Origin: Candidatus Gottesmanbacteria bacterium
GTDB taxonomy: Bacteria; Patescibacteriota; Microgenomatia; UBA10105; UBA927
Direction: 5' to 3'
DNA: 64,000 nucleotides
Assembly (NCBI GenBank): GCA_963790805.1
Contig: CAWBPL010000002.1
Location: 640,696-704,695, forward strand
The position numbers were made by a program, and so were the translations under genes. Below the pieces are notes generated by a model, which had not been told where the DNA came from, searched no databases, and saw only the letters and a list, made by a program, of their open reading frames with translations. Positions 46,501 through 54,231 of this stretch are shown one piece after another. The stretch's first letter is position 1. The number at the start of each line of letters is the position of its first letter.

Positions 46501-49500
46501 CTAGTTTACTATCCACCAGTTAAATTCGACAGGAGATGATAGTGGGGTGTCGAGCGACACAGTGAAGCTGGTATTTGGAGTTTTATCTGCAACATACAAG
46601 ACCTGATTGTTTGTTGATGTAATCGGTGTGATATAGATAAGACTATTGGCGGTTACTCGGGTATTGGCGATCGTTATAGATCTCAGTCCTACCGGAATTG
46701 TGCCCTGTCCGATGGTGGCCTGTTCGCCGGTATTGTTGCCCGTGAGCGTGGACGTGTCGTTTTGGCTTGAAATATTGAGCTTATCAATATTGAGTTCGCC
46801 GCTGATACTTGCTAAACGTGCATTCAATTGGTCGCTTGTGAGCGTGCCGGCAAACGTTGCCGATCCTGAGGCATCAACCGTTGCGACAACCTGACCGCTT
46901 CCTCCTTTAATAAGCAGTTTTGCAAAGCCTGATTGGGTGGAGGTTGGGTTAAGTTGCGGCAGGTTAAGAGACAGATCGTTGCCATTTGCCCGAATGGTAC
47001 TTACTCCTAAGACGCCGTTTACATCCACGTTTCCTGTGACATTCAAATTACCGTTAATGATGACGTTACCCGATGTGTTGACGACGATCGTACCCCCCAT
47101 AATATCAAGATCGGCAAGCCTGTTTTTTTGAAGATAGAGCGTCTCGGCAGCAGTATTAATGCCGTTATTGTCTATTTGTACGTTGCCGTCGACTAAAAGC
47201 GATCCTGCGATAGAGGTTTTTCCAAGTAGGGTATCTCCAAAAACTGCGAGAGTTTGTGTGAGCGTGATATCTTTGTCGATTTCCACGCTCGATGTGTCTG
47301 CATTCACAGTTGCTCCGAGGGCCAAAAGAGCGCTTGTTGAAGCATCTTCCGTGGCAATTTGTGCGGAAGGCGTTGTTTCAAGAACCTGCGTGATATTTGT
47401 CACATTATTTATCGTTGCGCTGCCAGTCGAATTTGTTAATTCACCGTTTTGCGTCATGATGCGGTCCGCATAGAGTGTTCCGCTGAAGCTGGCATTGTCA
47501 GCGTTTACTTGGTCTGCCGACAGCTGGCTTGTCTTGATTGTCGGAACGGAAAGCGAGCTCGAGATTGTTGCGTTGCCCAGTACGTCAAACGTGGCTGCAG
47601 GTTTTGCATCTTTTGTATAGATACCGAAAGTTTGTGTGTTGCTGAGCTTTACGGAAACGCCGGACGATTGGTCACTCAGCGGTGTTATCGTATCGGTAGA
47701 AACCTCCGGTGCACTGGCAAGCGGTGAGGTTGCTGGATTGTTGTTGAGTAAACCGCTTGTTGAAACGACATTTAAAATATAATCATGAAGCGATTTTCCT
47801 CCAATGGTGAGCGTATTGGTGACAAGATCCTGTGTTGTTATGGATCCGGCTTTTAACGTTCCAATTATCGCCTGTGAAAAAGAACCGACTTCTTCTACCA
47901 CGTCGCCAGTAAGTGTTTTTACCTGATATGTCCAGTTGCCTTGCGGAGCTTGTGTTGCCTGAATAGTCATATCGGATATGTTATCCGGCGGCTGTCCGAT
48001 AACATCGCCGGAACTGGTTAGGCCGAGTTGCTGTCCTTCGTTGATGACAAAACCGCTCGATGCATCAGATGCACGCGTATTAGCCCACTGGCTGGCGTCA
48101 AAGCGGGGAGCGGTGAGCCGGTATGAAACAACGGTCGGTTTAGAAGTATATATAGTGAGCGTAAACGCAGTTGGGTCGATGGTATACCAGCTTCGGGCAT
48201 TTGAGGCGGGGGACAGTAATACAACCAGATTATTGATATAGTGCCGTAAATCAGTAACTTTTGAGAATAACCAGAGATCAGAGCCGGTTGTTTGATTGGC
48301 AAAGTTTATGACATTTTTGTAACCGACTCCGGCAACCGGCACCGATACAAACACCGATCCTGCAGTTTCCTCCTTTTGGCCAACCATACCGGAGAGATAG
48401 GTTGCGTACTTTTCTCCATTGATTGTATAGGGAGGATCTACCGTACCCACATCAATTTTTCCGTCTCCCGATCCGACCGTCAGCATAGCTGAGCCCGTTG
48501 CTCCCATGATTGTAACGTCGCCGGTATTCGCGATCGTGAATGTTTGGTTCATATTAACATCGCTCGTGCCGCTGTCACCCGGAGAGAATCGGATGCCGAA
48601 GCTTGATCCGTTGAGGACATCAATTTTCGGATTGGAGGTAAATTTCATGGTTCCAGCCATGGAAGCGGAGTTTGAATCTGCGGGATTTACGAAATAGTTT
48701 TGGTTTTGTAAATCGTAAAACGCTGATCCGATAAAATTATTTGGCGTTTGAACATTTCCTTCAGATGTAATTCGCATGTTGACTTGTGGGGTTGTACTGC
48801 CGGTAAGCGTGGTAAAGGCAAGCTCAGACCGGTTGGTCGCGTTTAAGAACATTGCCGAAATACTTGCGATATTTTGCATAGCGTCGCTTGTATCCGGTGC
48901 TCTAAATTGAATGCCGCCTCCGATACCGCTTGCGCCGACGCCGCTACTTAAGGCTTTATCAATGGTCAGAATGGTTTCTGTCTGGTTATTAGTAGTATCC
49001 GTTTGCACAACATGAAGTTTTGATAACGGTGTGACTAAACCAACTCCGACATTTCCTGAAGCGTCGATGATAAAAGGCGTTGAGTCGGAGTCTCCAGTAG
49101 TGTTTACGCGGAAGGACGTGGACCCTGCTCCTCCTTCATTTGTGACCATGAGGGCGGTGTTATGGTTCGTAGTGGAATTGATGATATGTACGAGGTTACC
49201 CGTATCACTTGAGCCGGAGCCGGAGAACGTCATATTCATCATGTTTCCGGTAAATGCGGTTGAACTGCTGGATAGCGATAATCCACTGCCGCTTGTTAGA
49301 CCATTAAATGTGCCATTTATACCTTTACCTGTCGTTAAAGCGTTGGCAGTCAGATTCATGAGCTGTCCACTGGTTAAAGCGGATCCGGTGAGTGAAAGTG
49401 TCGTTCCAGTCGTATTCACTGCGTCATTTAAATTCATCGCAGTAGCATTTGAGTTTGGTCCGAAGTAGTTGTAAATAAAGTTGCCGGTTGAATCAACTGA

Positions 49501-52500: not shown

Positions 52501-54231
52501 TGCACCTGTTGATCCGGATGGTCCGGTAAGTCCGGTGCTTCCGGTAGGTCCTTGTACTCCAGTTCCTCCCGTTGCTCCGGTCATGCCGGTGGGACCTGCA
52601 CTTCCCGTCGTTCCTGTACTGCCAGTCGAGCCGGAAGGACCTTCAAGTCCTGTCGCCCCAGTTGGTCCTTGTATACCGGTAGCTCCTGTTTGGCCCGTAG
52701 GTCCTTGTATACCGGTAGCACCGGTTGGACCATTAACTCCAGTTCCTCCCGTTGAGCCAGTCATACCGGTTGGGCCCGTGATGCCTGTTCCTCCGGTTGG
52801 ACCAGTAACGCCCGTTCCGCCTGTGGCACCGGTTGTACCTGTTGGTCCTTGTACGCCCGTTCCGCCTGTGGCACCGGTTGTACCTGTTGGTCCTTGTACG
52901 CCAGTTCCTCCTGTGGCACCCGTCCTACCAGTAGGTCCTTGTACTCCAGTTGCTCCCGTTGCTCCAGTAAATCCGGTCGGTCCTGCTGAACCGGTTGCGC
53001 CGGTAGTGCCTGTGGCGCCGGTTGGACCTGATAAACCTAAAATGCCGGTTGCGCCGGTAGATCCTGTTGGACCATTTTCACCGGTGGGTCCGGTACTTCC
53101 GGATGGACCGGATGGACCACTTGGTCCGGTTGGACCGAAGACACCTGCTTCGCCGGTTGCGCCGGTTTCACCGGTTGGACCCAATTCACCAACAATACCG
53201 GTAGGCCCCGAAGATCCTTGAGCCCCTGTGGGACCCGCCGGTCCGCTTGCTCCCATGTTTCCCGTAGGGCCGGTTGGTCCATAGACGCCAAAAAATCCGG
53301 TGCTGCCTGTTGGTCCACTTCCTCCAGCTTCGCCGACTGACCCGATTGGACCATATTGACCCGTAGGGCCAGTAGGGCCGAATACGCCATTTTGACCCGT
53401 AGGGCCAGTAGGGCCGGACGCTCCAACTATTTGTGAAGACTGATTGGAGCCGTTGTGATTTTGGTTTGATAAAAGCGGATTAGGTTCTGGAGTAGGGGCT
53501 GCTTTGGGTCCTGATGTATTTTGATTCTGTAATCCGATGATTTGATATATTAAAGCACCACTTCCAAGAAGTGCGATTAGAAGTAAAGCTCCAATAGCCA
53601 GTGGGGATAAGAATCGCTGCAATCCGCCAGACATAATTGGCGGTTTACCTGCGGGAATAACGATTGTTTCCTGCCCAGAAGAATCCGTAGTAGAAGGAAG
53701 ATTTTGATTAGACGGAGTATTTGGTGAACTAGGTTCTTGCGGAATCGTAGAAGATGTATCTTGAGGTGGAATATTTTCCGCAACTGCCTCTGAAATAATT
53801 GGAGAAGGAGAAATTTGTTTCGGAGCGTTTAATAAAAGGACGGCAGGAAGTAATCGATCGGACTGTCCCATCGAGGATTTTTGCTTTTCATCAGGAGATT
53901 TAGGAATATTCGCGAGGTATTGAGAAGGATCTTCGTTTACCCAGCCCTGATTTATCGCACAGCGAAAAAAGATACGGATTGTTGATAGCCGACGATTAAT
54001 GGTCGAGGCAGGTATATGGGCTAACGTCTGAGAACGCTTATAATTTTCCAATACATCAAGCGTAATTTGTTTCAAGATTCCCTTTTGTTCACTAGTGGAT
54101 TGTGGAAGCCCATTTGCTTGTGCTGATGTTGATATCCAATTAAAAAAATGGCGTATATCGGTGCGGTAATTCTTTTGAGTGATCTCAGAGGCTCCCTGAT
54201 CGCGCAAAAATCGAAATGAACGTACGTTCAA
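46501..54231 (-). CDS. Giant (2,576 aa) membrane-anchored fibre/adhesin-like protein: integrase-type SAM-like N-domain, TM helix, collagen-like G-X-Y region, fibre motifs, LamG-like domain
   Basis: A single ORF starts at TTG 54231. Its parts are: the N-terminal domain (nt about 53917-54231), the TM helix (53530-53613), the G-X-Y run (52261-53424), the LamG-like segment (about 50080-50750) and repeated G(N/K)VG(I/V)...P...L(D/H)(I/V) motifs. See the findings for details. Confidence 0.85.
52261..53424 (-). repeat. Collagen-like G-X-Y coding repeat (about 129 uninterrupted triplets by hand count)
   Basis: The run reads [13 protein letters not shown]...[10 protein letters not shown]. Thr dominates the Y position ([12 protein letters not shown]). 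It includes near-identical tandem 45-nt units encoding [15 protein letters not shown] around 52830-52930. Confidence 0.9.

Follow-up and report, generated by a model that had tools for sequence, protein, structure and literature searches.

We describe a giant minus-strand gene in a 64,000-nucleotide (nt) stretch of a Candidatus Gottesmanbacteria genome (contig CAWBPL010000002.1 of assembly GCA_963790805.1, forward-strand positions 640,696 to 704,695; this whole stretch is hereafter the window). The gene, reconstructed at 46501..54277 (-), joins an integrase-type core-binding (CB) domain to a membrane anchor and a very long fibre. It is well supported that the gene is chromosomal, that it belongs to a Microgenomates-class, Gottesmanbacteria-related bacterium from among the candidate phyla radiation (CPR), and that it encodes a single-pass membrane protein with a giant fibre. 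We favour, at a probability of about 0.4, the reading that this protein is a membrane-tethered DNA-binding fibre which, by analogy with ToxR, couples attachment to transcription or to the positioning of DNA.

The CB (SAM-like) domain occupies 53917..54277 (-) and was recognized by Pfam, by NCBIfam and by Foldseek searches with an AlphaFold2 (AF2) model. With the isolated N-terminus as query, residues 7-96 match Phage_int_SAM_1 (PF02899) at 40.1 bits and E 4.7e-10 (curated cut-off 22.3); the full protein scores 30 bits, and Phage_int_SAM_5 matches the N-terminus at 26.7 bits. With 34 family sequences as input, AF2 folds residues 1-135 into a helical bundle, at a predicted local distance difference test score (pLDDT) of 86 and a predicted template-modelling score (pTM) of 0.76. 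The top Foldseek matches of this model in the PDB, none of them at E<=1e-3, are exclusively CB domains of tyrosine recombinases, among them lambda Int 75-356 (probability 1.00, template-modelling score 0.57 on the query), the isolated N-terminal domain 3nrw (0.72 on the target), Tn1549 Int, Cre and Brujita Int. An earlier note, made from the letters of this DNA, had placed an integrase-type SAM-like domain in the N-terminal ~110 residues and had proposed profile searches and a structure model as checks; the significant PF02899 match and the CB-like model agree with it. Family members share the motifs S..T.KNY..D...F..W and STINRRLS..R. Across 34 CB domains L9, N21, Y22, D25 and R80 are invariant and K20, F29, W32, Y64 and R86 nearly so, and these conserved residues fall, by eye, in the CB motifs of XerC/D (Y..D of helix B, R.ls..R of helix D). 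Likeness to tyrosine recombinases such as XerC/XerD, lambda Int and Cre thus extends over residues ~1-105 in sequence, predicted fold and the motifs of helices B and D. The best PDB sequence match of the CB profile, chain 14 of 9i5v ('RaiA'), was considered as a hint of ribosome binding and is uninformative; that chain is a 400-aa P. gingivalis protein with 34 residues modelled (PMC12123416).

The likeness ends where a recombinase would begin to be catalytic. A tyrosine-recombinase catalytic domain was found in no scan, as the earlier note had claimed, and PF00589 gave no match at E<=1; the NCBIfam XerC/XerD models cover the N-terminus by positions ~10-108 of ~295 only (ends ~96-108). After residue ~110 the R-K-H-R-H-Y active site is absent and its place is taken by a P/S-rich linker, a transmembrane (TM) helix, collagen repeats and, in all, ~2,300 residues predicted to be extracytoplasmic. 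Because the catalytic domain is absent, the protein as read from its sequence cannot act as a recombinase, that is, cannot cut or join DNA. A recombinase partner gene nearby was also considered and rejected: for 128 upstream neighbour open reading frames (ORFs), the top 25 of 34 families do not include Phage_integrase. The same holds for the family: PF00589 is absent from the precomputed Pfam lists of every CB-bearing homologue among 83 ectodomain relatives (see below), some of which carry database names such as 'site-specific recombinase XerD' or 'site-specific integrase'. The present analysis corrects this systematic misannotation of proteins that have no catalytic domain.

Behind the CB domain lies a low-complexity linker rich in P, S and Q (53614..53916 (-), ORF residues 106-206; 15% Pro and 14% Ser over residues 121-215), followed by a single predicted TM helix, the hydrophobic segment of residues 207-234 (53530..53613 (-)); both had been noted before. 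No N-terminal signal peptide was found, and the LPxT[GAS] motif occurs nowhere in the protein, whose C-terminus reads ...EFNWWIVN. We place the CB end in the cytoplasm because a signal peptide is lacking, ~200 residues precede the sole TM helix and the kinds of domain on the two sides fit this orientation; the protein is thus predicted to be a type-II (N-in) single-pass membrane protein. The positive-inside rule, tried as a test of topology, leans slightly towards N-in but was too weak to decide: over 58 family members the mean number of K+R is 1.93 in the N-terminal and 1.60 in the C-terminal flank.

Outside the membrane, the predicted fibre starts with 130 uninterrupted G-X-Y triplets (52255..53424 (-), residues 270-659; Pfam Collagen, PF01391, 148.6 bits), for which the earlier count had been about 129. 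A collagen triple helix rises 0.286 nm per residue, and the tract would form a trimeric stalk of ~110 nm if triple-helical. Beyond it, a region formerly described as beta-rich and blade-like is modelled as a beta-propeller (50785..51774 (-), residues ~820-1149). In the AF2 model of residues 655-1230 (overall pLDDT 54.7), residues ~820-1150 alone are confident (pLDDT 70-90), and Foldseek returned >800 PDB matches at E<=1e-3, of which all 50 listed are propellers, WD40-type, with probability 1.0; no Pfam repeat family matches this region. Next comes a LamG/concanavalin-like domain (50098..50580 (-), residues ~1218-1378), where Laminin_G_3 reaches 53.6 bits against a cut-off of 27.6 over residues ~1255-1378 in a piecewise Pfam scan, the N-terminal half being matched in the preceding piece. 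Propellers and LamG domains are typical binding modules. They are followed by a long beta-rich, T/S/N/G-rich fibre region (46717..50097 (-)), conserved in homologues and holding a GNVGVG..P..L motif, for which Pfam, PHROGs and PDB sequence searches gave no match. The tail-fibre-like GxVGI...P...L motifs that had been pointed out lie at residues 758 and 1725 and are conserved among homologues. At the extreme C-terminus, a K1-lyase_C-type tailspike domain (46555..46716 (-), residues 2506-2559) scores 33.8 bits against a cut-off of 27, again piecewise. By the Pfam scans and structure models, the earlier domain-by-domain anatomy, in the order SAM-like, TM, G-X-Y, modelled propeller, LamG, fibre, was right.

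Two kinds of known fibre resemble this ectodomain. Like the streptococcal Scl1/Scl2, the Legionella Lcl and the Bacillus BclA proteins, it has a long G-X-Y tract, which would make a trimeric stalk with a distal binding domain at its end. NCBIfam SclB, Lcl and SclA match the repeat region far below their cut-offs (207 vs 325, 164 vs 500 and 131 vs 400), and the present protein differs from these adhesins: it has no signal peptide or LPXTG motif, is anchored by an N-terminal TM helix that carries a predicted cytoplasmic domain, and has a distal part of ~1,900 residues. With phage tail fibres and tailspikes it shares a terminal K1-lyase_C domain as well as collagen repeats and G.VGIG motifs, which many tail-fibre proteins have, and some homologous fibres contain intramolecular chaperones of the Peptidase_S74 or Peptidase_G2 type. 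Unlike phage tail fibres, it sits at a conserved chromosomal locus beside leuS; the PHROGs scan of the ectodomain matched one family of unknown function only and no tail fibre, and an ectodomain sequence search of the PDB found no match. No relatives were found among IMG/VR viral contigs, which argues that the gene is cellular rather than phage-borne.

The protein is no isolated case but one of a large Microgenomates family. With residues 1-260 as query, a word-indexed search returned four relatives only. The ectodomain retrieved 83 giant proteins of 1,062-3,329 aa, with source names, where given, of Microgenomates, Parcubacteria, Gottesmanbacteria, Falkowbacteria and Patescibacteria; the closest homologue, P0001 (51% identity), and the orthologue P0008 (2,322 aa) repeat the domain order of the window protein. 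About 22 of the 83 begin with one or two CB domains and then, at residues ~210-390, have a TM helix. In several others the gene call is truncated inside the collagen; those of P0005, P0006 and P0012 begin within the G-X-Y tract, the true N-terminus missing, so the CB-TM part is undercounted in databases. Long spurious ORFs with PVAPV... translations also occur opposite the collagen repeats (L004 6868-8229 (-); similar ones in L022, L028 and L034, where L numbers denote loci of the genome scan described next).

Two profile searches extend the family. In an exhaustive HMMER search against 1.84 billion cluster representatives, 19,994 pass E<=1e-3, 2,490 pass E<=1e-10 and 349 pass E<=1e-30; without exception the best 150 clusters, with proteins of 214 to 6,048 aa, begin with 2-3 CB stretches in tandem. 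Eight close CB domains were also made into a profile, with which one genome per GTDB species was scanned; 355 loci were confirmed, and locus-level counts were taken from the best 80 of these, which come from records of Gottesman-, Roizman- and Shapirobacteria, Microgenomates and Patescibacteria. Many Microgenomates-like contigs (L005, L006, L008-L012 and others) are titled 'uncultured Gammaproteobacteria bacterium', one is assigned to Bathyarchaeia and one to Ectothiorhodospiraceae; these titles are probably placeholder or wrong taxonomy in records of metagenome-assembled genomes (MAGs). A continuous ORF running from CB domain through TM helix into a giant ectodomain is present in ~33 of the 80 loci, on at least 30 independent MAG contigs. 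The search for the same domain order that the earlier note had proposed therefore finds the architecture recurring, and since the same ORF is continuous in so many independent contigs, the joining of CB domain and fibre is no assembly accident: by sequence comparison the fusion is real and recurrent, and it appears to be under selection.

That the fusion could nonetheless be an accident of assembly or annotation, or the gene a pseudogene whose CB domain is the remnant of a decayed integrase, has to be weighed against the state of the window's own copy. As claimed before, the ORF at 46501..54231 (-) comprises 2,576 uninterrupted codons, its first in-frame Met being codon 121; its called start, TTG 54231, does not hold up as the native one. 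Relatives start at a conserved ATG 15 codons further upstream, equivalent to 54277 in the window and invariant among 22 aligned genomes, and nine of them share the N-terminus ...YM(D/E)SLMLSNL(A/S)DYQ(A/G)FIERTF.GFLQEQGASE. The window's version of this stretch is encoded in the neighbouring frame (ORF 54185-54313), and removal of one T from the T5 run at 54206..54210 (-) (A5 on the plus strand), where the frame shifts relative to all relatives, joins it to the long ORF. Because the N-terminus conserved in relatives sits in the neighbouring frame, the TTG start is, on this alignment, an artefact of an apparent single-base indel, the extra base being either an assembly indel or a genuine frameshift mutation. 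The reconstructed gene thus runs from ATG 54277, with one apparent surplus base at 54206-54210, to the stop at 46501-46503 and encodes ~2,591 aa; the shift, at native codon ~23, hits helix A of the CB domain and leaves the continuity of CB domain and fibre unaffected.

This shift, and the condition of the essential neighbour leuS, are what speak for an artefact or a dead gene. The frame of leuS changes at least 3-4 times, near 55420, 55590, 56850 and 57146, so that at least three ORFs result; the relatives first compared have the gene whole, at 839-877 aa. The stretch 54.2-57.2 kb is accordingly either badly assembled or decaying, and homopolymer density alone does not explain its indels. Since a single frame suffices to align each of the other neighbouring genes compared (comEA, comEC, the metallo-beta-lactamase gene and the pilin genes), the indels are local to it. 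Against an artefact or dead gene stand the 7.7 kb of open frame downstream of the shift, the continuity of the same CB-linker-TM-collagen ORF in dozens of independent assemblies, the invariance of CB residues across 34 family members, the 2,490 related clusters at E<=1e-10 with tandem CB stretches throughout the best 150, and the unbroken frame of the other neighbouring genes tested. We regard this explanation as very improbable.

The family also varies at its inner end. The sequences resolve the inner module into four forms: one CB domain; tandem CB domains, a pair being present in most family members; a second CB domain split between two genes; and one or two helix-turn-helix (HTH) domains. 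The last form is found in four of the 83 ectodomain relatives (P0022, P0023, P0033 and P0087), where MerR/excisionase-type HTH domains (HTH_17/MerR) stand at the CB position, in tandem in P0023 and P0033; in these two the TM helix at ~220-245 and collagen from ~280 are spaced as in the window protein. Nucleic acid is the putative ligand of the inner module, for which the strongest argument is that the CB and MerR/Xis-type HTH folds are unrelated, have DNA binding as their common property, and occupy the same position.

In the split form (47 of the 80 loci), the profile hit is to a short complete ORF, 153-324 aa long and with one exception <220 aa, that holds one full CB domain and positions ~2-40 (helices A-B) of a second. 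The next ORF is giant in ~38 of the 47; its residues ~2-58 correspond to CB-profile positions ~45-103, and a TM helix comes after them. The split point, the loop after helix B of the second CB domain, is the same in many genomes. Such loci are L015, L020-L023, L025, L027-L032, L034 and ~30 more (for example, L027 5974-6465 with 6556 onward, and L034 5809-6456 with 6446 onward). Stop-codon read-through or programmed frameshifting that would join the two genes is unlikely, given gaps of -25 to +900 nt in all three frames. Because the second CB domain is divided between the two polypeptides, the arrangement implies that the small soluble CB protein must dock onto the inner end of the fibre. The split form is in this respect a natural example of a small helical domain divided between two polypeptides. 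Split-form gaps of 550-1,140 nt contain a small ORF which by motif resembles the 23S_rRNA_IVP/Avd-like four-helix-bundle type (L036 1735-2118; L056 5698-6087; L061 6621-7001) or the NYN-domain type (L043; L082; L030 6953-7594), and such genes may insert preferentially at the split point.

Put together under the favoured reading, the cell would carry on its outside a collagen-type trimeric stalk of ~110 nm bearing propeller, LamG lectin-like domain, beta-rich shaft and tailspike-type C-terminus, a long fibre acting in contact or adhesion. On the inside, each chain would end in a CB domain, held by a flexible, P/S-rich tether of ~100 residues to the membrane. The inner module would be a nucleic-acid-binding device kept at the membrane and linking the fibre directly to DNA, most plausibly as a membrane-tethered regulator of ToxR/CadC logic: attachment or load on the fibre would alter the occupancy of specific DNA sites, possibly the unusually conserved boxes upstream of the fibre's own gene. 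Where the second CB domain is split, docking of the small CB protein on the fibre's half-domain would be reversible. Likeness to the bitopic regulators ToxR, CadC and TcpP is one of layout only (an N-terminal DNA-binding-type domain, one TM helix and a C-terminal outer part). Unlike ToxR/CadC, the present protein has a CB domain (or a MerR/Xis-type HTH) and not an OmpR-type winged helix (Trans_reg_C), its outer part is a collagen-stalked fibre of ~2,300 residues rather than a small sensor domain, and its DNA binding and regulatory role are putative.

The candidate DNA sites lie in the spacer of ~1.1 kb (30% GC) between the fibre gene and the divergent leuS. Over ~600 nt upstream of the gene (54278..54876 (-)), an alignment of 22-23 Microgenomates genomes shows boxes kept in sequence and register; the proximal ~375 nt have a mean column identity of 59% and 43 invariant columns, in genomes with CB domains ~35-69% identical to the window's. 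Among the boxes are TTGACAnnnTTATTA; TTGACAnnnTTATTATATAT (54294-54313 (-)), followed by TTAAGT and ATG 54277; TATGCGGTAATTCGTGAAAT (54397-54416 (-)); two palindromes TCAATAnnTATTGA (54457-54470 and 54658-54671); CTATAAG-N17-TACAGG (54572-54606 (-)), also given as CTATAAG-N17-CTAYAGG; and (T/A)(G/A)GCAC-N15-TGC(C/T)AA (54677-54708 and 54845-54876 (-)), which includes TAGCAC-N15-TGCCAA. The main boxes occur nowhere else within the window, and they are probably operator or promoter sites, that is, DNA bound by protein. A conserved promoter-like TTGACA-N18-TT.A.T (54275-54313 (-)) ends six bases ahead of the invariant ATG, which suggests that the gene may be transcribed as a leaderless mRNA; a sigma-70 consensus scan of the upstream region gave no enrichment over shuffles. 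A structured RNA, riboswitch or T-box leader was considered and is not supported: Rfam gave no match at gathering threshold over the window and, over 54150-55550, a spurious SCARNA7 as the sole match at E<=1, and RNAalifold on 22 aligned upstream sequences found 3 pairs at -0.66 kcal/mol with no compensatory changes. A replication origin in this AT-rich spacer was likewise rejected, GC skew being positive across the whole window with no switch.

Several points weigh against a DNA-binding fibre. Many homologous fibres begin with a TM helix alone and have no DNA-binding-type domain, so the fibre as such can do without the inner module. The net charge of the CB domain is just +3 per 125 residues (14 K+R vs 11 D+E), and DNA binding by an isolated tyrosine-recombinase CB domain is weak when the catalytic domain is missing. 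The N-in topology is itself deduced, the positive-inside bias being weak. The upstream boxes could bind any regulator, and an ATGCGGnAAT / TTCCGCA-like element is present upstream of an HTH-type homologue too, so that box does not track the type of N-terminal domain. Finally, the window copy, with a frameshift at codon ~23 in the assembly, may be inactive or mis-sequenced.

A precedent for a different function is RodZ, a bitopic protein whose cytoplasmic HTH binds MreB, not DNA. RodZ resembles the fibre protein in being type-II bitopic, with a DNA-binding-type fold at the N-terminus, a linker, one TM helix and an outer domain; the two differ in that no sequence relationship exists and the outer parts are unlike in size and nature. 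Along these lines, the CB/HTH module could be a protein-protein adaptor that anchors the fibre to a cytoplasmic partner and so positions or loads it, candidate partners being a protein of the cytoskeleton or divisome, the platform of the type IV pilus or the small soluble CB proteins. The docking that the split form requires is a protein-protein interaction in its own right, collagen trimerisation would already cluster three CB domains, the CB charge is modest, and pilin genes flank the fibre gene in the window and in L004. What tells against an adaptor is that two unrelated folds whose common property is DNA binding share one position, a single protein partner for both being less parsimonious than a single class of ligand, and that the conserved residues lie, by eye, in motifs of CB domains that bind DNA in XerC/D. 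The neighbour census, moreover, gave no conserved candidate partner gene besides the small CB protein. We consider an adaptor a serious candidate that is nevertheless unlikely to be the answer.

The membrane-tethered DNA-binding fibre might be carried one step further, to a hitherto unrecognised trans-envelope signalling or coupling device of ultra-small episymbionts, in which a ~100-nm trimeric contact fibre, its inner CB or excisionase-type HTH domains bound to specific DNA sites, would turn host contact or tension into changes of transcription or chromosome tethering. The conversion would be direct, with no kinases or sigma factors, and the split CB domain would serve as a switch, its reversible docking releasing or capturing a DNA-binding subunit. 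We offer this larger picture as speculation and think it doubtful in full. CPR bacteria (Patescibacteria) make up a large share of bacterial diversity, and their cultured members live attached to other cells; to our knowledge these have very few recognizable regulators. The family described here comprises hundreds to thousands of giant fibres with an inner DNA-binding-type module and may link attachment physically to the genome.

It is apparently an undescribed family of ultra-small Microgenomates/CPR bacteria. Bitopic proteins with a cytoplasmic DNA-binding-type domain are known; what appears new here is its joining to a giant collagen-stalked fibre. The earlier note knew of no described precedent, and in the Creative Commons-licensed subset of PubMed Central and in bioRxiv we likewise found no description of a CB/SAM-like domain combined with a TM helix and a giant ectodomain, an absence that is not proof. 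In a preprint on giant genes (10.1101/2023.11.21.568195), the words 'integrase', 'collagen' and 'Microgenomates' do not occur.

The genomic neighbourhood had suggested a role in DNA uptake. The fibre gene does lie, as stated, between three N_methyl pilin genes (44702-46493 (+)) and comEA/comEC, with leuS (55357-57892 (+), frameshifted) intervening before comEA (57982-58713). The ComEC gene (58755-59831 (+)) encodes a Competence-domain protein of 358 aa, and beyond it a 298-aa ORF (59844-60740 (+)) aligns to the relatives' metallo-beta-lactamase gene. ComEC functions are thus divided over two genes; L002 shows the same division, which is therefore native and no assembly break. No tRNA genes were found in the window.

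In this setting the CB domain could serve DNA uptake or tether the nucleoid beside ComEC, ComEA and the type IV pilus machinery at the site of host contact. In the window, and in at least 7 closely related genomes, the fibre gene has comEC-comEA-leuS as divergent neighbours. Of 64 surveyed loci, 26 have LeuRS as the nearest upstream gene, and ~20 have a ComEA-type gene as the second upstream neighbour. Pilin genes stand directly downstream in the window and L004, and at the HTH-type locus L085 (8001-16172) DprA lies 2.5 kb downstream of the homologue. Yet the association runs through the unrelated housekeeping gene leuS and in one clade only, and shared gene order among related small genomes is expected without a functional link. 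Moreover, CB domains recognize duplex core sites, whereas ComEC delivers a single strand. In 32 of the 64 loci, of Roizmanbacteria type, one of the two ORFs nearest upstream is a Big_1 gene (bacterial Ig-like, invasin-type), and at L085 ATP synthase genes stand upstream instead. The com association thus reads as clade-specific synteny, not a family-wide link: of the proposed uptake role, the synteny stands for one clade (~20-26 of 64 loci) and fails for others, which have other neighbours. We judge uptake or nucleoid tethering to be quite improbable.

Some features of these other neighbourhoods are worth recording. The Big_1 type, a second conserved neighbourhood of the family, is found at L027, L030, L039-L041, L045, L046 and L052-L083; the ORF taken as the Big_1 gene encodes ~140 aa (about 410-450 nt), lies on the other strand immediately upstream of the CB gene, and has a ~300-350-aa ORF beyond it. 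In the orthologous locus L002 (GCA_964515005.1), the place of the pilin genes after the fibre gene is taken by two further giant genes (17263-24165 and 24468 onward), which have no Pfam matches and encode proteins of 2,300 and 3,112 aa.

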